Positions 5,227 through 64,000 of a DNA stretch of 64,000 nt are shown piece by piece. Source of the DNA: Eledone cirrhosa (lineage: Eukaryota); contig CAXHJY010001732.1 in the NCBI GenBank assembly GCA_964016885.1, forward strand, positions 33,763 through 97,762, in the 5' to 3' direction. The position numbers and the translations under genes were made by a program. Below the pieces are notes generated by a model, which worked only from the letters and a program-made list of their open reading frames with translations, was not told the DNA's origin and did not search any database. Every line of letters starts with the position of its first letter. The stretch's first letter is position 1.

Positions 5227-8200
5227 GTAAGTTACTCTTTCAATTTATTTCATTAATTTTATTATTAATCCCACCGAGGTTAACTTTGCCTTTCATCCAT
5301 ACAGAGGTCGATAAAATAAAGTACCAGTAATGTACTGGGTAATTGCTGGCCTTGTGCCAAAAGTAGAAACAATTATTATCATCATCATCATCATTGCAGC
5401 ATGGGAGTTATGGCCCTTTACGGTCTGAGTTCAAATCTTGCCGAGGTTAGCTTTGCTTTTCATCCTTACGGGGGTCAATAAAATATAGTACCAGTAATGC
5501 ACTGGGGGTTCGATTTAATCGACCCACCCCCCGCCCCATCACCCAAATTACTGGCCTTGTGCCTACACTAGAAATCATTATCATTGCAGCATAGGAGTTA
5601 TGGCCCTTTACGTTCTGAGTTCAAATCTCGCCACAGTTAACTTTGCCTTTCATCCTTACGGGGGTTGACAAAATATAGTACCAGTAATGCACTGGAGTAA
5701 TTGCTGGCCTTGTGCTAAAAGTTGAAGTGGATTGGTAGTATCTGTAGAGGGTCGGACGGTGTGCTTTGCAGCATAGAGTCACGGCCCTTTACGTCCTGAG
5801 TTCAAATCCCGCCACGGTTAACTTTGCCTTTCATCCTTGCTGGAGTCGATAAAATAAAGTACCAGTCACACACTGGGGTCGATTTAATCGACTTTCCCCT
5901 CCCCCAAAATTGCTGCCCTTGTGCCTATATAAGAAACCATTTTTATTATTTTGGGATTGGCAGAATCGTTAGAGCGTCCGACAAAATACTTGGCAACATT
6001 TAGTTGTGACCCTTTATATTCTGAGCTCAAATCCTACCGAGGTTAACTTTGCCTTTCATCTTTCTACGATGGTTGTGGTGTGGAATGGGTCAATAGAATA
6101 AAGTATCGGTCAAGTACTGGGTTGATGTAATCGATGTGTCTTTCACCCCCACAAATTGTTGGCTATTTGCCTGAAATTAGAAATTGTAATCATCATCATC
6201 ATCATCATCATAGTTGGTGTGTTGGTGGATTGGTCGAATCGTTAGAGAGTCAGAGAAAATAACTTGTGATATTTGTTCCATCTCCTTTACTCTTTTACCT
6301 GATCCATCCCCATCCATCCGGCTGAGGCCATGCTGGGGCACCGCCCTTGTTTGAATGCTTACAGCATCTAGGTTTCCCCAGCGGTCACCCATCTAAGTAC
6401 TAACTAGGATCACTAAGCTTAACATTGCTTAACTTCGGTGATCGGACGAGAACCAGCCTTTTCAGCATGATATGCCTGTAAACATCCTGGGTTCAACTTT
6501 TGCTGGGGTCAACTTTGTCTCTCATCCTTTCAGGGTTGATAAATTAAAGTACCAGTCATGTATTGGGGATAAGTTTGAGCTTCCCTTCACCACAAAATTG
6601 CTGGTCTTGTGCCAAAATTAGAAATCATCATCATCGATTAACGTCTATCTTCCACGCTAGCATGGGTTAAACAGGTTTGTCCTATTTAGAGGCAAGTTGG
6701 GTCAGGTGACTGTGTCTCGCTCATATAGGACAGTTTCCGGATGGTTTTCTACGGCTGGATGCTCTTTCTGACGCCAACCACATTAACAGTGTGTGTTGGG
6801 TACTTTTTGCCATGTCTTTTACACATCCACTTTACAGTGTGGGCTGGGTGCTTTTTGTTGTGACACCTACATGATCACTTTACATAATTATTTGTAATCT
6901 TTTCTCTTATAGAGTTTCACCGTCATCTTCATCTTACACCTGTATTTTCATGCTGAAATGGGTTGGTTAGGTAACACAGTATCTCATCATTCGTTGGAGC
7001 CCTTCATGTCCTGACACACACAACAACAAAGAAAACTCCTCACTTTACTGGACACTGTCCTTCATATCCTGGGGGACGGTGATGCCATCAGAGAAAACCA
7101 CTAATCTTTTCTGGTCACAGTCCTTTGTATCCTGGGGGACACCAACAGATAAAACTTTTGATCTTTGGTGGTCAGTTCTTCATATCTTGACACATACACA
7201 GAGAAAACTTCTGGTCTTTGCTAGCCACTGTTCTTCATATTCTGACCTACACACCCACAGAGAAAACCACTGGTCATTGCTGGTCAGTCCTTTATAGTCT
7301 GACACACACACACTAACAGAGAAAACCACTGGTCACTGCTGGTCAGCCCTTCATATTCTGACCTGCACACCAACATAGAAAACCACTGGTCACTGCTGGT
7401 CAGCCCTTCATATTCTGACCTACACACCAACAGAGAAAACCACTGGTCATTGTTGGTCAGTCCTTCATATTCTGACATACACACCAACATAGAAAACCAC
7501 TGGTCACTGCTGGTCAGCCCTTCATATTCTGACCTACACACCAACAGAGAAAACCACTGGTCATTGTTGGTCAGTCCTTCATATTCTGACATACACACCA
7601 ACATAGAAAACCACTGGTCACTGCTGGTCAGCCCTTCATATTCTGACATACTCACAACAGAGAAAACCACTGGTCATTGCTTCATATTCTGACATACACA
7701 CCAACATAGAAAACCACTGGTCACTTGCTGGTCAGTCCTTCATATCCTGACACATACACACCAGTATAGAAACTCATAGGTCTTTGCTAGCCAATCCTAC
7801 ATGTCTATACATTGTGACACAAAGGACTTCTGTTGTTTGTTGTGTATAACATGTTTTTTAACATGGTTTTTACAGCCTGGTACCCTTCCAATCACCAACC
7901 AATTTACATCATGAACTGGGTGTATTTTATCAGGCTGCCACCATTAACCCTTTATCATTTACATGGTCGTGTAGGAGACACAGTAAAAAGGCCCCCAGCC
8001 CACACTGTAAATGTAGTTGGTGTTTGATAAAGGCATCCAGCCGTAGAAAACCAGCCAGTAACTCTCCTATATGAGCGAGACATGGTCACCCGACCCAAAT
8101 TGCCTCTAAATGGGACAAACCCATCTAACCCATGCTAGCGTGGAAGATAGATATTAAATGACAACGATGATGATGATGATTACCCAATATTTACTATTGT

Positions 8201-21800: not shown

Positions 21801-24800
21801 TATTATAATAATAATAATTGTTTCTAATTTAGGCACAAGGCCAGAAATTTGAAGGGGAAGGGAAAGTCGATTAAATTGACCCCAGTGTTCATCATCCACA
21901 TACTTCACATGTCCCATGTCCATACCAGTACAGTCTTCTCTCATTGCCCCATAACATTTGATTTCTCTAATACATGAACTAACAGAACCATATCTTCATA
22001 TTACAGGGTCGGTGCCAGTCTTCTGTGCTGCTAACAGAGTTCTTGTCTGAGATTGTACAGCTCAGCTATTTCCAAAGAGCACTCCTAGTTTCCACAAGTA
22101 TGCGTGCCATCATTTGCAGAACTGACACAGACAATGAAATCATCCAAGTTGGACAAAAGAAACGAAAAATGTAAGTTCTTTTATTTGCAGTATTATTCAC
22201 AACCCAGAAAATAATGCAGTAAACCTTTGGTCAGTAAAGGGGTTAGTATTGAAAATATACTATAAATATGATGAAATTCAAGTGACAATTTCTACAGGAA
22301 ACTGCCCCTCGTTCTAAGATATATAACTATAAGGGTCTGTCATCAGATGACATTTGTAACCTGTAAAACATATATCTGTATATATGTCCCACAACAACTA
22401 CATTATTTTATATATATATATATTGTGTTGAAAAATGACGTAGACATTACAATATAAAAGATGGCGTAGACATTGCAATACATTGGGAGGAAACATAATA
22501 GCACCACTGATGATGTCGCAGATGTGCAACAAAAGAACTTTGATAGACTATATATATATATATATTTATATCTATATTTTTAACCGTTGGTCAATCAATG
22601 ATAAACATTGATTGCCAGATAAATTAACTATGGAGATATAAAAGATACAGAAGCGAAAACCAACCCAAACCAAACAGTGAGTGTATCCTGTTATTCTGGC
22701 AATATTATAACAATATGACCCTCCCCAAGTATAACAATATATATATATATATATATATATGAAAAGATTCAGGACCCTGATGGCTGAGTTCCGGCCGTTT
22801 CGACAGCTAGATCTGAACTCTTGAAACGGCCGGAGCTCACCTGTCAGGGTCCTGAATCTTTTCATATTACCCACTCTACTACCCCATGTATCGAGTACTC
22901 TGGTGGGTTATGGTCCACCTGGTATTTTACCACACCCTATCTGATATATATAGATATATATATATATATATATATATCATCATCATCATCATCATCTATA
23001 TATATATCCAGGAGGCAGCAGAGGCCCAGGAAGACCAAAAAGGACTTAGATGGAGGATGTCCATCAGGATGAAGCTAGGCTTGGCCTGACCCAAGTGAGA
23101 CCAATGAACAGAAACACATGGAGCAGGACGCTAAGGAGTGCTGTCAGGCAGGACCCACCCTTCGTAGGGATTAATTGTGTCCTGCATAATCAAAAACTGG
23201 ATGATGATATATATATATATGTGTGTTAGGTAATTCCGAAGGAAAAGCAAAGGGAAAAAAGAGTGCTCTATGTATAGAACAGAGCTATTTAATTAGAAAG
23301 TGAACAACACAAAATATAACTACTCCATTACCAAAGGATAACATCTCTGTCTGACGACCGATCCAGACGTCTATATTATTATTATCGTCTGTGATCCAGA
23401 AACCTTTGGTAATGGAGTAGTTCAATTTTGTGTTCACTTTCTAATTAAATGTATATATATATATATATATACAATATATTAATAAATGGAAACTATATTT
23501 ATAAAACCATATTTATTTTATTATACATATTTCAAGGGCCACCAAGGCAAATTATGGTGCGCTTTCATCAGATAAAATACAATACAGATTAGTTTTATAA
23601 ATAAATATTGATATACCCTGAAAAAAGACTATCCAGGAAGCTCCAACCGGTAAGGTTGTCTTTTTTCAGGGTATATCAATATTTATTTATAAAACTAATC
23701 TGTATTGTATTTTATCTGATGAAAGCACACCATAATTTGCCTTGGTGGCCCTTGAAATATGTATAATAAAATAAATATGGTTTTATAAATATAGTTTCCA
23801 TTTGTTAATATATTGTATATTTACACCAATAATTTGTTGAGTGCTTTATATCAGTTATAAAAATATTTTTAAGCTTGTTGTATCCCAACAAATTAAATAT
23901 AACTTCTGCATATATATATATATATATATATAAGACTGCCTGTATTATCAGATCTGATCTGGGGTGGGATCTGATGTCTGTATTATTAGTCAACACTATC
24001 GAGACTGCCTTATCTGATCTGATCTAGCATCGGATCTGATCCGATACAATAGTAAATCATCATCATCATCATCACTGTTTTACGTCTATTCTTCCACACT
24101 AGCATGGGTTAGGCGGGTTGTCCTGTTGTGGGCAGTGTCCAGTCGGCTGACCTTGTCTTGCTCATACGGGAACTGATTCTGGCTTGATTTCTACAGCTGG
24201 ATGCCCTTCCTAACACCAACCTCATTTACAGTGAGTGCTGGGGGCTTTTTTGCTGTGGCACCTCCATGACCACTTTACAGTGGGAGGGGGTGAGGGCATA
24301 TTGTCTATATGCTTCAGCTTCAGCCCATGTGAAGAGTGATATAAATGCTAAAGCAGAGGTTCTCAAACTTTTGGGGCTACTGCCCCTCCTCACGGCCACG
24401 TAAAACCCTCAGCAACCCCAACCCTATTCCCAGAGAAACCTGCCTACATGCAAATTGTAAATAACATATAATAAATAAGAGTGTTAATTTATATATAATA
24501 AATAATATAATATATACAACGTATAAATAAATGTTATATCTTTTTTATTTCACTATATTTATATATGTCTCATTTGATATTTTATATTCTATTATATCAT
24601 CTCTACCGCCACCCACCAACCCCTTAGGCCCTAGCAATCCCTGGGACCTTCTCAATGCTCCACGGGGTTGGGGCAGTGATGCCCACTTTGAGAACATCTG
24701 TGCTAAAGGGTTAATGAAAAGTAAAATATAACATTTGTAATTCTCTGGTAAATCTTCTTCTGCAGACCTGGTAACTACGGTGCTTGCTTCATCCCGATGC

Positions 24801-33800: not shown

Positions 33801-36800
33801 GTAATGAAAGGGTCTTTCATCCTTTCGAGGTCGATAAAAGAAGTACCAGTCTAATACTGGGGTCGATTCTTCCTCTACATCTCTTTCTCATTTCCTCTCT
33901 CTCTCACTTTCTATCTTTCTCTGGAAGACATCTGCTGTGCTTAGGCCTGGAGAGGCATGGGCTCCTCCAGGCTTAAAATGTCAATATGGCGCCCCTACGA
34001 CTCTGTCAGGTGTTACGGGACCATACCATAGCAATGAAAGCGTTAAAGTGTTTATATTTATTTTAAAACATTCTATAATTTTATGTAAGAACCTCTGTTA
34101 AGTTATGGTCCAAACGTTGGCTTTATAATAAGACCCCCAAATTTTTGATTATTTTCAAAATGATTTAAAAGTCATAAGCAGTGTCTTTCGTTAGAAATAC
34201 AGTAATGAAAGGGTTAAAGTGTTTATATTTACTTAAAAACCTTCCATCATAATTTTAAGTAAGAACTTTTGTTAAGTTATGAAAACGTTAGCTAGCTAAA
34301 TTACTAAATTCCTCAAAATTTGTGATTATCTTCAAAATTATTTGAACATTCCATCATAAATTTTATGTTAGAACCTTTGTTAAGTTATGTTCCAAACACT
34401 GGTTTAATAATGAGAAAATTAAATATTCTACAAATTCCTCTAAATTCTTGTTAGGATTTTCAAACTATTTTGAAAATCCTAAGAGAGTATCTTTCATTAG
34501 AAATATGGTAAGAAAAGGGTTAATCTTTCTCTCTACAATTATCATCACCCACCTAGGTTGCCTTTAGTGATTATTTTATGATGGATCCAACCATGACAGA
34601 CATGATGAGGTCAGTGGCTGAAAGACTTGATCCACAAAAGTTATCCCAGTTGCTAATATCACCAAGAGGAGGAGGATTGATTGCTGCTACCCATGTTGGT
34701 ACTTGGTTTGTTCCAAGTTACAGGAATGTCATTCAAGTTTGTAAAAGTATTATGCAAGGTAAGGGATTCTTTGAAACATTCTTCTCTCTCTATATATATA
34801 TATATTTTTTTTTCTCCCTCTTTATATACACATATATATATATGGCTTAGTGGTTAGAGCATTGGCCTTGCAATCGAAAGGTTGTGAGTTCAATTCTCAG
34901 ACCAGGTGTTGTGTTGTTTCCTTGAGCAAGACACTTTATTTCACATTGCTCCAGTTTACTCAGCTGTAGAAATGAGATGATAGGACTGGGGTCCCTATCA
35001 TTCCACTGCAAAGTGGTCGTGGAGGTGCCACGGCAAAAAAGCACCCAGCACTCACTGTAAATGAGGTTGGTGTTAGGAAGGGCATCCAGCTGTAGAAATC
35101 AAGCCAGAATCAGTTCCCGTCCCACCCTTGCAAGCATAAATACACACATCCTCCCATTTCCATCCACTGTGTCGATAACACAACAAAAAGCACCCAGTCC
35201 ACACTGTAAAGTTGTTGTGTAGGAGACATGGTAAAAAGGCACCCAGTCCACACTGTAAGCTGGTCGTATAGGAGACATGGTAAAAAGGCTCCCAGTCCAC
35301 ACTGTAAAGGTGGTTGGTGTTAGGAAGGGCATCCAGCCGTAGAAAACCTGCCAGAGACACTTCCATACAAGCGAGACATGGTCTTCTGACCACATCAAAT
35401 GGAACGAAACCATCTAACTCACGCTAGCATGGAAGATGGACGTTAAACGATGATGATGATGATATATATTTATATACACACATTGTTCAGAAACACCGAA
35501 GATTCAAAACCTTATCAAACTAACAAATATTTCTCCCGGGATAGAATTTTAATAACTGGGTTAAAATTTTATAATTTAACCCCTAGTCTTCAATTCGGTA
35601 CCAGCATCATCAGAGTTTATTAAAGGCTTCATTAATATTTCACGCATAGTAAAAATTCATTACATTAAAACATTCATTATGGTAACAATTTACAGAATGC
35701 AAAAATTTCAAACACATAAGCGCCTTAAAATCAAGTTGCAAAATTTAAAAAAAAATTTTTTGTAACACTTTGCCCTCACTATCACTTAGAGAGTGCACTG
35801 CTTGGTTGCTTCAATCTTTTTTTTCACCTACATTCTGTTTCCAAGAATTATATCTTCTCAGAAGAAATTTAATTGATGTTGTTGTTTGTATCAGGTCATC
35901 ATTGGACGATAACTCCGCCTCTTGGCATGGCAATATCATCATCTTGGAGATTAGTTAGTGCTGGTGCCTACACTGAAGAACATGGTAAGTTATGCTTTCA
36001 AAACCTTCACATAACCCTTTAGTATTTAAACCAGCCATATCTGGCCAGAATTCTCTCACCTTTTACTGTTCAAACTGGCCAGAATTCTCTCACCTCTTTC
36101 TATTCAAACCAGCCATATCTGGCCAGAATTCTCTCACCTCTTTCTATTCAAACCAGCTATATCTGGCCAGAATTCTCTCACCTCTTTCTATTCAAACCAG
36201 CTATATCTGGCCAGAATTCTCTCACCTTTTTCTGTTCAAACCAGCCATATCTGGCCAGAATTCTCTCACCTCTTTCTATTCAAACCAGCCATATCTGGCC
36301 AGAATTCTCTCACCTCTTTCTATTCAAACCAGCCATATCTGGCCAGAATTCTCTCACCTCTTTCTGTTCAAACCAGCCATATCTGGCCAGAATTCTCTCA
36401 CCTCTTTCTATTCAAACCAGCCATATCTGGCCAGAATTCTTTCACCTCTTTCTGTTCAAACTGACCATATCTGGCCAGAATTCTCTCACCTCTTTCTATT
36501 CAAACCAGCCATATCTGGCCAGAATTCTCTCACCTCTTTCTATTCAAACCAGCCATATCTGGCCAGAATTCTCTCACCTCTTTCTATTTAAACCAGCCAT
36601 ATCTGGCCAGAATTCTCTCACCTCTTTCTGTTCAAACCAGCTATATCTGGCCAGAATTCTCTCACCTCTTTCTGTTCAAACCAGCCATATCTGGCCAGAA
36701 TTCTCTCACCTCTTTCTGTTCAAACCAGCTATATCTGGCCAGAATTCTTTCACCTCTTTCTGTTCAAACCAGCTATATCTGGCCAGAATTCTCTCACCTC

Positions 36801-46834: not shown

Positions 46835-47170
46835 ATACAATATATTAATAAATGGAAACTATATTTATAAAACCATATTTATTCTATTATACATATTTCA
46901 AGGGCAACCAAGGCAAATTATGGTGCGCTTTCATCAGATAAAATACAGATTTGTTTTATAAATAAATATTGACATACCCGGAAAAAAAGACAACCTTAAC
47001 GGTTGGAGCCCTTGAAATATGTATAATAGAATAAATATGGTTTTATAAATATAGTTTCCATTTATTAATATATTGTGTATTTACTCCACTAACTTGTTGA
47101 GTGCTTTATATCAGTTATAAAAATGTTTAAGCTTGTTGAATCCCAACAAATTAAATATAACCTCTGCATA
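46835..47170 (+). mobile_element. Penelope-like element remnant, second copy of the 23467-23910 family
   Basis: Same outer ends, different inversion junction, flanked by (TA)n. Confidence 0.7.
46880..46945 (-). ncRNA. Hammerhead motif, same family as 23708-23773
   Basis: Same core as the 23.7 kb motif. The stem I variant atagaata keeps pairing through a U-G wobble. Confidence 0.7.
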
Positions 47171-53468: not shown

Positions 53469-53551
53469 GTATATACATATATATGTATATACATATATAT
53501 GTATATACATATATATATATATACATATATATATAATGTATATATATATAC

Positions 53552-53584
<33 letters not shown>

Positions 53585-53585
53585 C

Positions 53586-53618
<33 letters not shown>

Positions 53619-53935
53619 CATGTATGTATATATATATATACATGTATGTATATATATATATACATATATATATATATACATATATATATATACATGTATG
53701 TATATATATATATATACATATATGTATATATATATACATATATGTATGTAGATAAATCTACCAAGAGTTTACGGTAGTGTCCAATCCGTATGAAGAACTC
53801 AATGTATTCCGGATATCATGGAAAGAAGAGATGTAATGAAAAACCACTTTCGGTGAAAGATAAACGGTATACAGAGTCAAGATAAAATATTAAACAAATA
53901 ATGAATAAACAATTCCTTATATTAAACAAAAAAAG

Positions 53936-54090
53936 TTCATTATTTAACGATCGTTTCTAGGATATATATGTGTTATAATTGGTATGCATATTCAACAGAT
54001 CTATGTACAAAATTATACAAAATTATACAAATTATCAAGATTAAATATACATACCAAACACATATATACGCCGTCTTCAGAAATAATGAA
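53936..54090 (-). ncRNA. Hammerhead motif with 116-nt stem II, inverted copy of 56020-56174
   Basis: Reverse complement of the 56020-56174 motif. Confidence 0.75.
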
Positions 54091-54902
54091 GTATATTTAT
54101 TGATAATAACAACAATTCAAAATTTCAGTTCAAAATTGACCAATGAAAACACAAAAGGTTAAATGCAGTTCGGTGTGTGTATATACATGTAAAACCCTTA
54201 CACATATTTTACAAAAATGTATGTATAATTTGTATACGCATACTAAAAGGATGGATGCAAATACGAAATTTCAAGGTTAATGTCTCTGTGAGCTTACATG
54301 CGCAGATAAGATGCGCATTGATACTTATGAAATCAAGTATATAAATATATTTTTTTTCATACTCACACATATCAGTACAATCACACATACACGCGCGTAT
54401 ATGCATAAATATACACATAACCACGAACATACAAACACACACACACCCCCACTCACATTTATATATGTGGATATAAAATCATAAGCACATGGATATTAAT
54501 TCACTCACATAAAACACTGGCACACACATTTCTAGATCAAGATACAGAAATTAGGTGGGAGGGGGGGGGGGAGGGGTCAGTATTCAACTGTCTGAGCAAA
54601 CTGTCTAATATAAATGTATCTATAAATTAAGAAAAATAAAAAAATAAACAATAAAATATAATAAATATAATGTAATATACATACACATACAGATATATAC
54701 ACATACATACATGTACGCACACATAGAAATATTTACGCATACGCACATACACACATACATATACAGTCATACACACACATACACTTACACGAACATACAC
54801 ATACACATATATAAAGATATATATATACACACACACACACACACGCAACACATACACATATATATAAAAATAAACAATAAAGATATATACCTATATATAT
54901 AT

Positions 54903-54955
<53 letters not shown>

Positions 54956-55356
54956 CACACACATACATCTAAATATACATACACATACATACACACATAC
55001 ATGTACATACATGTACATACATATACGCACATCGATATACATATATATATATATATACACATATATATATACACACACATAGACATGTAGATACATACAC
55101 ACACAACTTACATACACACATATATATATACATGTATATTCATACATAGAATTAGATATATAATCATACATACTTATGCACTTACTTATACTCATATATA
55201 CAAATACATACGCATCTATATATGCATATATACATAAAAAAAACTACAACCTCACCTAACTCAGACATACAAATAAAAATAATAATAAAAAGGCATATGT
55301 ATATACATACACACACGCATTAATAGAGATATATATATAGAGACACATACATACAC

Positions 55357-55422
<66 letters not shown>

Positions 55423-55425
55423 ACT

Positions 55426-55469
<44 letters not shown>

Positions 55470-56019
55470 GATATCCATTATTCTTAATTTATAGATACAT
55501 TTATATTAGACAGTTTGCTCAGACAGTTGAATACTGACCCCTCCCCCCCCCCCTCCCACCTAATTTCTGTATCTTGATCTAGAAATGTGTGTGCCAGTGT
55601 TTTATGTGAGTGAATTAATATCCATGTGCTTATGATTTTATATCCACATATATAAATGTGAGTGGGGGTGTGTGTGTGTTTGTATGTTCTTGGTTATGTA
55701 TATTTATGCATATACGCGCGTGTATGTGTGATTGTACTGATATGTGTGAGTATGAAAAAATATATTTATATACTTGATTTCATAAGTATCAATGCGCATC
55801 TTATCTACGCATGTAAGCTCACAGAGACATTAACCTTGAAATTTCGTATTTGCATCCATCCTTTTAGTATGCGTATACAAATTATACATACATTTTTGTA
55901 AAATATGTGTAAGGGTTTTACATGTATATACACACACCGAACTGCATTTAACCTTTTGTGTTTTCATTGGTCAATTTTGAACTGAAATTTTGAATTGTTG
56001 TTATTATCAATAAATATAC

Positions 56020-56174
56020 TTCATTATTTCTGAAGACGGCGTATATATGTGTTTGGTATGTATATTTAATCTTGATAATTTGTATAATTTTGTATAATTT
56101 TGTACATAGATCTGTTGAATATGCATACCAATTATAACACATATATATCCTAGAAACGATCGTTAAATAATGAA
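56020..56174 (+). ncRNA. Type-I hammerhead motif with 116-nt stem II
   Basis: 10-bp stem I ttcattattt/aaataatgaa; CTGAAGA at 56030; long stem gtatatatgtgtt/aacacatatatat and tggtatgtatatt/aatatgcatacca; GAAA at 56153; palindrome cgatcg; GUU site. Confidence 0.78.
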
Positions 56175-56419
56175 CTTTTTTTGTTTTAATATAAGGAATT
56201 GTTTATTCATTATTTGTTTAATATTTTACATATATGTATATATATATACGTATATGTATATATATATATATGTATATATATGTATATGTATATATATATA
56301 TGTGTATGTATATATATATATGTGTATGTATATATATATATATATATATGTATATGTATATATATATATGTGTATGTATATATATATATGTGTATGTATA
56401 TATATATATGTGTATATGT

Positions 56420-56450
<31 letters not shown>

Positions 56451-56464
56451 TATATATATGTATG

Positions 56465-56511
<47 letters not shown>

Positions 56512-56668
56512 GTATATGTATATATATATATGCATATATATATGCATATATATATATATATGTATATATATATATGCATATATATATGCATATATATATA
56601 TATATATGTATATATATATGTATATGTATATATATATATGCATATATATATGCATATATATATATATG

Positions 56669-58478
56669 TAACTTTGAATAACTTTGAATAACTTTGAAAT
56701 GTTTTGGCCAGTATTGGCCCAGGCCATGTCTAACTTAATAGCACCACCTGGCGAAGTCTTTCATTCAGGATTTGGGCACCATGGCCCATTCGAGAAGAGA
56801 ATTACTGTTTGCGGAGACATATCCGGGTGTGGGTGGTTTGTCCGGGATTACTTGGAGGAATTTGTCCAAAGACTTCTTGAATTTTGTGTGGTCAGTTTCT
56901 GTTTTGACGTGTCCTGGTGTGATGTTGAAGAGAGCAGGGCCGATTGAGGTGAAATAATTGTGCCGTATTGTTGTTATGAGTTGCGATTTAGATTTTTGAA
57001 TGGGACGGATAGCACGGGGCCCAAGCCTTGGGTGTATCTTGAAGGCGATGCCAACATCATTTGGGCAGTGATGATGGAACATTTTCCACATCATGCAGAT
57101 AATATAACGCTCACGGCGGACGTTGGAGTGAGTAAAGTTTCAGGTTTTCCAATCGACCCCAGTAGTCAAGGTCTGACATGCCATCTATCTTTTTCGTGAT
57201 TGCCCTTTGAGGAGCTTCAAGTTTCATGATACTTTGTTTCGTGTGGGGAGACCACAGTGGACAACAGTATTCAAGGTGTGGTCGGGCGAAAGTAGAGAAG
57301 AGAAGGATAATGGTGCGGGAATCTCTCGACTGGAAGGTTCTGAGGATCCAGGAACACTGCGGGCCATGTCAACTTTGCTGCTTATATGCGTGGTCCAGCT
57401 TATGTTGCTGCTGTCCACGGTTACTCCCAAGTCTCTGATGTTGTTAGATGCCACGAGAGTTTCCCCGGAGGGAAGGGAGTACGGGAGTTTCAGAGCATCC
57501 TCTTTTCCAAAGTGGATCAGTTCGAATTTGTCTTCGTTCAGTAACATGTTGTTCTTTTCTGCCCATTGGGTAACAGCCAGTAGGTCTGACTGAAGGCTTA
57601 TCCGGTCATCCACGCCATTGATGACCTTTTGGAGCTTGGAATCATCAGCGAAAATTTTAATGTTGCTGTGTTTGATGATGTCAGTGATGTCATTAATATA
57701 GATGATGAAGAGAAGTGGGCCCAACACAGTGCCTTGTGGGACCCCACTACTGACTTTGGCTGGGCTTGATTTGACTCCCTCAACTACAACATGTTGGGTT
57801 CTGTTTGACAGGAAGCTCTTGATCCACTGCAGCAGCTTTCCAGTGACACCAATATTGGACAGCTTTCTCAGTAGAATGTTATGATCAACCCTGTCAAAGG
57901 CCTTGCTGAAATCAAGGTAGATAACATCAGTGTTGGAACCCTCTCCCAAGGCTCTCAAAATGTCATCAAAGTGATGCAGTAGTTGCGTCAGGCAATCCCT
58001 TCCATTACGGAATCCATGCTGGTTGGAGTTCAGCATATTGTTACTCTCAAGGAAGTGGGTCATTCGCGATCTCACCACTCGCTCAAATACCTTAATGATA
58101 TGAGAGGTGAGTGAGATTGGACGGTAATTCACGGCAAGGGATTTGTTTCCCTTTTTGAAAACTGGGACAACAGACTGGGATAGAAGGTTTTCTGGCACAT
58201 ATCCAGCATCCAGTGAGTTCCGCCACAGATTGGCAAGAGGAGAAGCAAGTTGGTGTTGACACGCCTTCAAGACACAAGCAGGGAACCTATCGGGACCTAC
58301 TGCTGAATTATGCTTGATTTCCTTTATTGCCGCCAAGACATCAGGGGCGCCAAACGTTATGTCCGATAAGGTGTAATGGGGAGTAACATCGCCGATACAG
58401 CCCAGATCGGCCATATCAGGATTGCTGAAAACAGAGCAGTATTGTTTCTGCAGTATCTCACCCATGGTTTTAGCATTG
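56669..58478 (-). mobile_element. 5'-truncated LINE (CR1/L2-group) with reverse transcriptase domain and frameshifted C-terminus
   Basis: [70 protein letters not shown]; 3' tail (TTCAAAGTTA)x3; inserted in a TA array. Confidence 0.92.
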
Positions 58479-58592
58479 TATGTATATATATATATGCATA
58501 TATATATGCATATATATATATATATGTATATATATATGCATATATATATGCATATATATATATATGTATATATATATATGTATATATATATG

Positions 58593-58637
<45 letters not shown>

Positions 58638-58937
58638 GTATATATTATATATATATGTATATATGTATATGTATATATTATATATATATGTATATATGTA
58701 TATGTATATATATATATATGTATATATATGTATGTATATATATGTATATATATATATGTATAATATATATATGTATATATGTATATGTATTTATATATAT
58801 ATGTATATATGTATATGTATATATATATGTATATGTATATATATATATGTATGTATATGTATATATGTATATATGTATATGTATATGTATGTATATGTAT
58901 ATATATATATGTATGTATATGTATATATGTATATATG

Positions 58938-59010
<73 letters not shown>

Positions 59011-59150
59011 GTATATATATATATGTATATATGTATATATATATATGTATATATGTATACATATATATATACATATGTATATATATATATGTATATATGT
59101 ATACATATATATATACATATATATATACATATATATATATATACATATAC

Positions 59151-59181
<31 letters not shown>

Positions 59182-59230
59182 CATACATATATATATATAT
59201 ATAAAATATTTTCATATCATTCCAATACAA

Positions 59231-59347
59231 AGGTCTGACGACATGGTGTGTTTGCTTACAGTGTACCTTCGGTTTATGATAATATTTGTATATTATTCAA
59301 ATAGCGAGGTATAGGTAACCCATACACTATAGAAACAATTGTTACCT
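59231..59347 (+). ncRNA. Type-I hammerhead motif with 90-nt stem II
   Basis: aggt CTGACGA c atggtgtgt...atacactat a GAAA caattg TT acct. Confidence 0.78.
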
Positions 59348-59399
59348 AATAAATTCTATATACCCGCATTTCCATTTCGTAAACTTCTTCTCCATATGT

Positions 59400-59462
<63 letters not shown>

Positions 59463-59530
59463 TGTATGTATATATATATATGTATATCTTTATATATATG
59501 TATGTATATATATATATGTATATATATATG

Positions 59531-59600
<70 letters not shown>

Positions 59601-59632
59601 TATGTATATATATATATGTATATATATATATG

Positions 59633-59677
<45 letters not shown>

Positions 59678-59736
59678 GTATATATATATGTATATATATA
59701 TATGTGTATATATATATGTATATGTATATATATATG

Positions 59737-59769
<33 letters not shown>

Positions 59770-59782
59770 GTATATATATATG

Positions 59783-59853
<71 letters not shown>

Positions 59854-59917
59854 GTATATATATATGTATATATTATGTATATATATATATGTATGTATAT
59901 ATATATATATATGTATG

Positions 59918-59964
<47 letters not shown>

Positions 59965-59967
59965 TTG

Positions 59968-60003
<36 letters not shown>

Positions 60004-60110
60004 TATATATATGTATATATATTTGTATATATATATGTATATATATATATATATATATAAATATATATGTATAGTGTATATATATATATATATATAAATA
60101 TCTATGTATA

Positions 60111-60167
<57 letters not shown>

Positions 60168-60223
60168 TATATGTATAATATATATATATATGTATATATA
60201 TATAATATGTATATATATGTATA

Positions 60224-60283
<60 letters not shown>

Positions 60284-60350
60284 ATATATATATATATGTG
60301 TATATATATATATATGTGTATATATATATATATGTGTATATATATATGTG

Positions 60351-60397
<47 letters not shown>

Positions 60398-60508
60398 GTA
60401 TATATATATATGTATATATGTATGTATATATATATATATGTATATATATATGTATATATATATATATGTATATATATATGTATATATATATATATGTATA
60501 TATATATG

Positions 60509-60553
<45 letters not shown>

Positions 60554-60604
60554 GTATATATATATATGTATATATATATATGTATATATATATATGTATA
60601 TATG

Positions 60605-60803
<199 letters not shown>

Positions 60804-60836
60804 ATATATATGTATGTATATATATATATATGTATG

Positions 60837-60867
<31 letters not shown>

Positions 60868-60868
60868 G

Positions 60869-60938
<70 letters not shown>

Positions 60939-61170
60939 TGTATGTATATATATATATGTATGTATATATATATATGTATGTATATATATATATGTATGTA
61001 TATATATATATATGTATGTATATATATATATATGTATGTATATATATATATGTATGTATATATATATATATGTATGTATATATATATATGTATGTATATA
61101 TATATATATGTATGTATATATATATATATGTATGTATATACATATATATGTATGTATATATGTATGTATG

Positions 61171-61277
<107 letters not shown>

Positions 61278-61366
61278 GTATATGTATATATATATGTATA
61301 TATGTATATGTATATATATATGTATATATGTATATGTATATATATATGTATATGTATATATATATG

Positions 61367-61433
<67 letters not shown>

Positions 61434-61450
61434 GTATATGTATATATATG

Positions 61451-61527
<77 letters not shown>

Positions 61528-61538
61528 GTATATATATG

Positions 61539-61593
<55 letters not shown>

Positions 61594-61832
61594 GTATATA
61601 TATGTATATATATATATATGTATATATATATATGTATATATATATATAGGTATATATATATATATGTATATATATATGTATATATGTATATATATATATA
61701 TGTATATATATGTATATATGTATATATATATGTATATATATGTATATATATATATGTATATATATATATGTATATATATGTATATATATATATGTATATA
61801 TATGTATATATATATATATATGTATATATATG

Positions 61833-61863
<31 letters not shown>

Positions 61864-61874
61864 GTATGTATATG

Positions 61875-61926
<52 letters not shown>

Positions 61927-61978
61927 TATGTATGTATATATATATATATATATATGTATGTATATATATATATGTATG

Positions 61979-62009
<31 letters not shown>

Positions 62010-62020
62010 ATATATATATG

Positions 62021-62087
<67 letters not shown>

Positions 62088-62088
62088 G

Positions 62089-62123
<35 letters not shown>

Positions 62124-62184
62124 GTATGTATATATATATATATGTATATATATATGTATATATATATATATGTATATATATATG

Positions 62185-62237
<53 letters not shown>

Positions 62238-62259
62238 GTATATATATACTATATATATG

Positions 62260-62296
<37 letters not shown>

Positions 62297-62309
62297 GTAT
62301 ATATATATG

Positions 62310-62360
<51 letters not shown>

Positions 62361-62385
62361 GTGTGTATATATGTATATATATATG

Positions 62386-62443
<58 letters not shown>

Positions 62444-62489
62444 TATGTGTATATATATATATATGTGTATATATATATATATGTATATG

Positions 62490-62662
<173 letters not shown>

Positions 62663-62675
62663 GTATATATATATG

Positions 62676-62706
<31 letters not shown>

Positions 62707-62711
62707 GTATA

Positions 62712-62800
<89 letters not shown>

Positions 62801-62801
62801 G

Positions 62802-62832
<31 letters not shown>

Positions 62833-62843
62833 GTATATATATG

Positions 62844-62898
<55 letters not shown>

Positions 62899-62899
62899 G

Positions 62900-62930
<31 letters not shown>

Positions 62931-62935
62931 GTATA

Positions 62936-63433
<498 letters not shown>

Positions 63434-63438
63434 GTATG

Positions 63439-63469
<31 letters not shown>

Positions 63470-63510
63470 ATATATATATATGTATGTATATATATATATA
63501 TATATGTATG

Positions 63511-63544
<34 letters not shown>

Positions 63545-63666
63545 TGTATGTATATATATATATATGTATGTATATATATATATATATGTATGTATATATA
63601 TATATCTATGTATATATATATATATGTATGTATATATATATATATGTATGTATATATATATGTATG

Positions 63667-63717
<51 letters not shown>

Positions 63718-63785
63718 GTATATATTATATATATATGTATATCTTTATATATATGTATGTATATATATATATGTATATATATATG

Positions 63786-63855
<70 letters not shown>

Positions 63856-63884
63856 TATATGTATATATAGTATATATATATATG

Positions 63885-64000
<116 letters not shown>

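Follow-up and report, generated by a model that had tools for sequence, protein, structure and literature searches.

In the excerpts of Craig et al. 2021 (PMC8557442) used here, Hydra-clade Penelope-like elements (PLEs) are ~3 kb long, carry one open reading frame (ORF) with a reverse transcriptase (RT) followed by a GIY-YIG endonuclease (EN), and show the motifs RWK and DKT, a CxCX5C linker, and CxxC and CxH around EN E/N. These elements target (TA)n and occur as 5'-truncated copies, partial tandems and inverted 5' copies, and their 3' region contains a type I hammerhead ribozyme in which the base of stem II is often mismatched and the nucleotide at the cut is often U. By inspection of the excerpted File S2 of that paper, stem II of the Hydra hammerheads is short (under 30 nt), and the longest arm, about 53 nt, belongs to PLE-X1_sMoe, which is not a Hydra element. 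Metazoan PLE hammerheads, in the consulted sections of Cervera and de la Pena 2014 (PMC4209133), are type I, with a stem I of 4 bp, a palindromic stem III suited to dimers and a helix II of 7-8 bp with a conserved G10.1-C11.1 pair, and most genomic copies are single and truncated. For PAc, a Poseidon element of Anolis, the excerpts of Frangieh et al. 2024 (PMC11167929) describe two internal reverse-transcription starts, which set both the ends and the tail, insertion into AT-rich targets, uncut RNA as the main substrate, and a protein-assisted hammerhead that overlaps the ORF start, with no ends, RNA ends included, at the hammerhead cut. The mammalian CLEC2 discontinuous hammerhead (excerpt of PMC6765202) accommodates a large insertion in its fold and cuts between the stop codon and the polyadenylation signal.

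The family described here, from the cephalopod Eledone cirrhosa, shares all of these Hydra-clade features, and differs from the elements in the excerpts of PMC8557442 in its 90-nt stem II, which is short there, and in a 3' tail of about 110 nt, against 30-40 nt there. Identity with Hydra-1_Obim was considered and rejected: the protein and the hammerhead differ by eye, and GAAACAATTGT has 0 occurrences in the portion of the PMC8557442 supplement used. The hammerhead agrees with those of PMC4209133 in type, in stem I, in its dimer-suited palindrome and in the predominance of single, truncated copies; in place of the short helix II with its G-C pair, it has a multi-helix arm that opens with a C.A mismatch. 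Like PAc, the family has two apparent internal reverse-transcription starts, AT-rich targets and no ends at the cut; unlike PAc, it belongs to another clade, its ATG lies past the cut, and its two start sites are about 110 nt apart. The large insertion and the position of the cut are shared with the CLEC2 hammerhead, which lies in a host gene and not in a retroelement, so that no homology is implied.

We analyzed a 64,000-nt stretch of contig CAXHJY010001732.1 (hereafter, the window), for which a solo hammerhead with a 90-nt stem II, occupying most of a small island between two TA arrays, had been predicted from the sequence alone. The features of this locus are listed in Table 1. The hammerhead lies where it had been placed, with stem I AGGT/ACCT, CTGACGA and GAAA (59332-59335), followed by CAATTG (59336-59341), U16.1 (59342) and U17 (59343), and the cut is predicted after 59343, at a GUU site. 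This arrangement corresponds to a type I core (CUGANGA ... GAAA ... UH) with three helices and an open stem I; the N7 position (59239) is C, T or A depending on the subfamily. The three stem II pairings named in the original prediction are likewise present (59243-51/59322-30, 59263-68/59307-12 and 59279-85/59290-96). CAATTG had been taken for the complete stem III palindrome; the true palindrome is longer, an 8-mer, ACAATTGT, at 59335-42, or, counting A14 and U17, a 10-mer, AACAATTGTT. The base of stem II is the C.A mismatch at 10.1/11.1, not G10.1-C11.1, and mismatches at this position are known in active or listed hammerhead variants (excerpts of PMC3088659; PMC8557442 File S2). Rfam searches identified no hammerhead in the window copy, whether the gathering score or an E of up to 10 was applied; the 90-nt arm is the likely reason.

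Table 1. Coordinates of the hammerhead, the truncated element and its target in the window
Feature	Position	Strand	Evidence
TA-rich microsatellite upstream of the insertion (part of the target), with TATA microhomology where the element begins	58479..59199		sequence
5'-truncated 3' end of the 3,017-bp Hydra-clade Penelope-like element (clade by motifs)	59200..59397	+	blastn of the full unit, copy identity, tandem unit length
Hammerhead stem I, 5' strand AGGU	59231..59234	+	sequence; pair probabilities 0.68-0.93
Catalytic core C3-A9, CUGACGA	59235..59241	+	sequence
Stem II, 90 nt, between A9 and G12	59242..59331	+	folding; shared variants mostly pair-preserving
GAAA core half, palindrome ACAAUUGU (stem III) and GUU triplet	59332..59343	+	sequence, dimer energy
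Hammerhead stem I, 3' strand ACCU	59344..59347	+	sequence, pair probabilities
AATAAA, candidate polyadenylation signal, 5 nt past the predicted cut	59348..59353	+	position repeated in long-arm rows
Proximal 3' end of the family's copies, where TCTTCTCCATAT meets the TA repeat; putative reverse-transcription start	59386..59397	+	69/100 copies end there
TA-rich microsatellite, downstream part of the target; contig and window end together	59398..64000		sequence

The island comprises 198 nt, positions -144 to +54 relative to the predicted cut. It had been described as the ribozyme plus a short tail between TA arrays, which is accurate, with approximate bounds of 59203-59396, which need a small correction: the full element unit matches the window by blastn solely at 59200-59397, so that the island represents the last 198 nt of the unit. 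The hammerhead is indeed solo locally, since neither the full unit nor the ORF matches any further part of the window. A search of the genome (3.0 Gb) yielded 1,114 candidates, 40 of which were scored and gave 42 matches, 41 of them 97-100% alike, and exact patterns found 735 copies with the family core (0 for a reversed control) and 961 with the 3' segment (control also 0). At all 29 other fetched loci, the sequence either extends further upstream or turns back into another copy, and longer stretches around the copies reveal an ORF-bearing repeat that is arranged both in tandem and in inverted orientation. In eight stretches picked for long open frames, from which the unit length was taken, the hammerheads of tandem copies are 3,017 bp apart in five loci and 3,003 in one. 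Thus, the original suggestion of an extremely 5'-truncated PLE insertion holds: what the island preserves is the 3'-terminal part of a Penelope-like element that exists elsewhere in full length, and the family displays the hallmarks of PLEs, that is, a pLTR formed by partial tandem, inverted 5' copies, 5' truncation and an optional tail.

Two sites, all of them shared polymorphisms, separate the window copy from its nearest relatives, which implies that it is young. Between 59223 and 59379, its 5' sites match one subfamily and its 3' sites another; it is either a chimera formed by template switching or a haplotype of intermediate type. On contig C4, at 204.13-204.57 Mb (L141, L148), full-length copies with intact 778-codon frames stand in tandem in a cluster that was probably amplified by segmental duplication and contains candidate source loci. 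The island locus itself is an ordinary truncated copy among hundreds and, as a solo copy without the ORF, the upstream promoter region of the element or a partner, is probably inert.

Full copies encode, from the first ATG, an ORF of 760 aa in which, read by motif, an RT (YRDD) is followed by a GIY-YIG domain (YYVGCT...ARLYQH); the ATG lies 212 nt after one cut, and the stop codon about 520 nt before the next. The motifs include RIRWKAF (RW[KR]), KADKTS (ADKT), YRDD, CNCTKPGTC (CxCX5C) and YYVGCT and, in the region of the C-terminal endonuclease, CKLCNLE (CKLC) and SKIERSLYCNH (CNH). Pfam, NCBIfam and PDB sequence searches with the ORF gave no match. We found 199 database relatives, with an identity of 31-39% among the 120 matches listed, and by eye the ORF looks colinear with the Hydra protein excerpts of PMC8557442. 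The 3' flanks of nearly all terminating copies are TA or CT-then-TA repeats, that is, (TA)n insertion sites. On these motifs, the element can be assigned to the Hydra clade of C-terminal EN+ PLEs.

To map the ends of the copies, the 961 matches were taken in genome order, and the first 100, which all lie on one contig (C1), were aligned to a natural tandem junction, with the arms of one insertion counted separately and alignment ends within TA repeats blurred by a few bases. The 3' ends fall at two sites, +43 to +54 (69 copies) and +148 to +172 (23 copies) from the cut; seven further copies read through into the next ORF, and one ends elsewhere. By contrast with these fixed 3' ends, the 5' ends are scattered: under a 24-nt search pattern, by which young copies are over-represented and any that begin past +20 are missed, 19 lie inside or just past the ribozyme (+16 to -108), seven at -115 to -144, and 48 beyond -575, with the rest dispersed. 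None of the 100 starts within -3 to +4 of the cut, the nearest being at -4 and +6. Among 30 copies picked for the ORF start, 28 cross the cut site upstream and two begin at +4 and +56; the 5' pile-up at the cut that the copy starting at +4 had led us to suspect is ruled out by both samples. A third sample (n = 30 copies) showed the same end pattern. The proposed check on the copy endpoints therefore gave a clear answer: 5' ends are unrelated to the ribozyme, 3' ends are fixed elsewhere, and, with no link between 5' start and ribozyme in 100 copies, the start of the island just before the ribozyme is due to chance. The mild excess of 5' ends at -115 to -144 (seven in 30 nt, against nine in the 150 nt from -151 to -300) is tentatively ascribed to AT-rich microhomology and a general truncation gradient. 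The fixed 3' ends, 43-54 or 148-172 nt past the cut, are what would be expected of PLE reverse-transcription starts.

Two side observations concern the ends. In four loci (L053, L073, L097 and L101), several inversion junctions lie at the stem III palindrome (-6 to -11), which suggests cDNA fold-back at this site; the 100-copy sample contains only three ends at -4 to -11. The tail in L144:1308-1530 folds better than shuffled sequences (z -2.93), with a hairpin that stops just before the distal 3' end, and the segment preceding the proximal end is predicted to pair with the ATG region.

The original prediction had also considered that the island might be a minimal mobile unit. This would be a non-autonomous, retrozyme- or SINE-like monomer with ends set by the ribozyme, spreading as such. 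The copy in the window has TA on both sides and no ORF, other long-arm families have short tandem or two-armed forms (L114, L126/L127), and animal retrozymes have been proposed to derive from pLTRs (bioRxiv 10.64898/2026.07.22.740005, excerpt). The island resembles animal non-LTR retrozymes (excerpts of PMC7229834 and of the same preprint) as a type I hammerhead on a short non-coding repeat. However, an island with the same bounds was found at 0 of the 29 other best-matching loci, only seven of the 100 copies start at -115 to -144 and no two of them at the same base, the 198-nt unit was not found in tandem, and the island differs from ORF-bearing copies solely at shared polymorphic sites. The scattered 5' ends and the lack of same-bounds islands contradict a minimal unit, which we regard as highly improbable. 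Retrozymes, in the consulted part of PMC7229834, are defined short tandem units, whereas the unit here is 3,017 bp long, coding and without a defined 5' end, and the island is a random fragment of it.

Very probably, then, the island is the last 198 nt of a Hydra-clade PLE copy. Its reverse transcription likely set out ~50 nt downstream of the ribozyme and, by chance, broke off early. In line with PLE biology, the TA microsatellite would be nicked by the GIY-YIG domain, and the RT would prime at an internal site on an RNA that is continuous across the ribozyme, a continuity implied by the copies that extend across the cut site. The template would be an uncut read-through transcript or a re-joined circle; synthesis would stop 144 nt upstream of the cut, and rejoining would occur on the TATA microhomology. 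Two ribozymes on a tandem transcript are predicted to pair via ACAAUUGU and thus to release unit-length RNA. A more specific scheme, proposed in the excerpted PMC4209133, concerns the mechanism and is compatible with this account of the origin of the island: tandem transcripts would be cleaved by the ribozyme to lengths of 3,017 nt, these units would close into circles, and an RT copying around such a circle would produce the partial tandems and the ends past the cut. The exact 3,017-bp tandems, the crossing of the cut by most of the ORF-start copies, and 3' ends beyond both the cut and AATAAA all fit this scheme. Nevertheless, uncut read-through RNA from a tandem locus would give identical ends, and, in the excerpts of PMC11167929, uncut RNA is the dominant in vitro substrate for another PLE; we therefore consider the circular template possible but doubtful.

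Stem II is modelled as the C.A mismatch, a basal helix of 9 bp, three further helices and an apical loop of the UUGU type. Folded alone, it has a z score of -3.34, with none of 300 shuffles equally stable, whereas the whole 131 nt folds less convincingly (z -1.69; 16 of 200 shuffles). In the monomer, the active stem III has a predicted pair probability of 0.03, and the minimum free energy (MFE) fold is inactive. A double hammerhead is predicted at -60.2 kcal/mol, whereas a pair of separate monomers reaches -49.0 if both are active and -59.0 if both are inactive; the best cofold (-65.6 kcal/mol) contains the palindrome duplex and lacks stem I. Given this cofold, C.A at 10.1/11.1 and the non-optimal GUU, the activity may be very low. 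On these models, the ribozyme is predicted to be a slow, dimer- or protein-dependent type I hammerhead, and its long stem II to be a tolerated extension that sits remote from the active site in the fold and whose structure is maintained; the calculated energies fit the slow, dimer-dependent PLE hammerheads in the excerpts of Cervera and de la Pena 2014 (PMC4209133).

The copies themselves carry signs of selection. In a survey of the 75 sampled copies, out of 100, that cover the island, variants in at least three copies were classed as shared, that is, passed through retrotransposition. Such variants are present at 0 of 17 core and palindrome positions and at 25 of 98 unpaired or flanking positions (p 0.02, in a test with 24), and the core and palindrome are intact in 65 of the 75 copies, with N7 in three states. 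In the drawn stems, 7 of the 10 substitutions classed as shared leave the pair intact, compared with 9 of 38 rare substitutions (p 0.01); for transitions alone, the figures are 7 of 8 and 9 of 21 (p 0.04); three of the 10 shared stem variants disrupt the drawn pair, and two of the seven that keep it are located in a helix of low predicted probability. No two-sided pair changes were found among the 75 copies of this family. Shared A>G changes at 59258, 59290 and 59301 fall in stem II helices, where they leave G.U pairs; RNA editing that became fixed in the DNA is a possible source. On this comparative evidence, stem II shows signs of structural selection.

In addition, we aligned 29 sequences from four mutually homologous long-arm families of the same genome. 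Their three-helix stem II has 85.8% of cells paired, a figure that leans high given that the structure was drawn from the same, related sequences, but that was reached by 0 of 500 shuffles and compares with at most 44% in slid versions; both sides have changed at 13 of 23 pairs. RNAalifold, unaided, recovered six pairs. As a candidate for a tertiary contact between stems I and II, we considered a pseudoknot in these sister families that would join a stem II loop to sequence lying 25-45 nt past the cut; covariation was unsupportive, with 177 of 2000 shuffles as good (two of the 29 rows were dropped, the downstream part being non-homologous).

These data bear on whether the ribozyme is catalytically dead or irrelevant, with the long stem II a neutral AT-rich insertion carried in the 3' UTR. 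Such a reading would accommodate the non-optimal 10.1/11.1 pair, the GUU site and the inactive monomer MFE, genomic copies that bear no trace of cutting, hammerhead mutants without effect on anole PLE insertion in vitro (excerpts of PMC11167929), and the failure of an HMM to detect homology between stem II of the window family and the sister arm, where 166 of 495 shuffles scored equally. However, the core and palindrome are free of shared variants while N7 varies, the shared stem variants tend to keep pairs, the sister families have two-sided changes, and U.U and other mismatches at the base of stem II, as well as U at the cut, are common among the Hydra hammerheads in the excerpted PMC8557442 File S2. 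Taken with these observations, a dead or irrelevant ribozyme appears unlikely, and the slow, dimer- or protein-dependent hammerhead predicted above is preferred.

For comparison outside this genome, we scanned 77 metagenome loci encoding relatives of the ORF, 60 of them with at least 150 nt after it, allowing a stem II of up to 160 nt. Among the 31 hammerheads obtained, 27 of them distinct, stem II measures 10-25 nt, so that the 90-nt arm of the window family is ~3.6 times the longest arm among the outside relatives found. Within the genome, the pattern CTGANGA-N75-105-GAAACAATTGT has 5,902 matches against 4 for a control, and short-armed motifs with the identical palindrome number 8,108 (control 6); counting short and long arms together, ACAATTGT forms stem III of no fewer than 14,000 hammerhead motifs, and dimers across families through this palindrome would still require a matching stem I. 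The long-armed motifs split into several families, with unbranched arms of 75-90 nt or, in one family, a branched 95-nt arm. Among 46 loci of the other long-arm families, 10 contain a Hydra-like ORF fragment (32-43% identity) in the fetched stretch, five of them upstream and on the same strand. A likeness, TCG...AGCGA, is visible between the arms of the window family and those of the sister families. As the arms are not detectably homologous and one is branched, long arms either arose repeatedly or diverged beyond recognition. The literature searched contained no long-armed PLE hammerheads, although such variants may be present in Lunse et al. 2017 (PMC5785218), and a search for hammerheads of octopus or cephalopod Penelope elements or retrotransposons returned solely Craig et al. 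2021 (PMC8557442).

The window contains further features. Another repeat family, also present in L041 and L059, is represented by two type I hammerheads at 46888-46937 and 23522-23571 on the minus strand, which are nearly identical and have a stem II of 31 nt and the palindrome ATATGTAT. At 35522-35613 (minus strand) lies a candidate hammerhead whose stem II measures 73 nt and whose stem III is nearly palindromic; it could represent a long-arm copy in decay or a chance match. An inverted repeat with arms at about 53500-54636 and 55477-56582, ~1.1 kb each, 90% alike and partly TA repeat, encloses a microsatellite-rich spacer (54636 to 55477) and looks like a two-armed insertion. Adjoining the TA array, at 56700-58478 on the minus strand, is a 5'-cut fragment of a non-LTR reverse transcriptase (RVT_1, E 3e-32) that is unrelated to the PLE and that, from the look of its motifs, may be CR1/L2-like. 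A 5S rRNA match with a 9-nt insertion at 6356-6483 (minus strand) is probably a pseudogene or a 5S-derived repeat.

The tail of the island contains AATAAA, as originally noted. Among 54 long-arm rows, AATAAA or ATTAAA starts 5-10 nt past the cut in 39, against a background of ~2% per 22 nt and in families that share ancestry, and two long-arm families (11 rows) have neither signal after the cut. No AATAAA was found in the 523-nt 3' UTR upstream of the cut. We rejected AATAAA after the cut as a general Hydra trait, as it accompanies just five of the 27 outside hammerheads. From its position, AATAAA is a putative polyadenylation signal, in which case cutting would remove it, as with the CLEC2 hammerhead (excerpt of PMC6765202), and polyadenylated RNA, ending before the reverse-transcription start, could not serve as template. 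Conceivably, but in our estimate improbably, the long stem II is a functional domain that was separately gained or remodelled in several Hydra lineages and gates the ribozyme before the polyadenylation signal. Under such a switch, uncut RNA would be polyadenylated and translated, and cutting triggered by protein or dimerization would remove the signal 5-10 nt on and commit the RNA to a 3-kb circular template.

To conclude, the element type itself is known, and what is new beyond the published picture is the structured long stem II: natural PLE hammerheads can have a structured stem II of 75-100 nt. About 5,900 long-arm motifs in a single genome elude Rfam, as tested for the window copy, and short-loop descriptors, and counts of hammerheads in animal genomes may thus be too low. 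As a young family with intact tandems and two sharp 3' ends, these elements provide good material to study what PLE hammerheads do, in particular, whether an uncut template or a circle is used and how cutting competes with polyadenylation.
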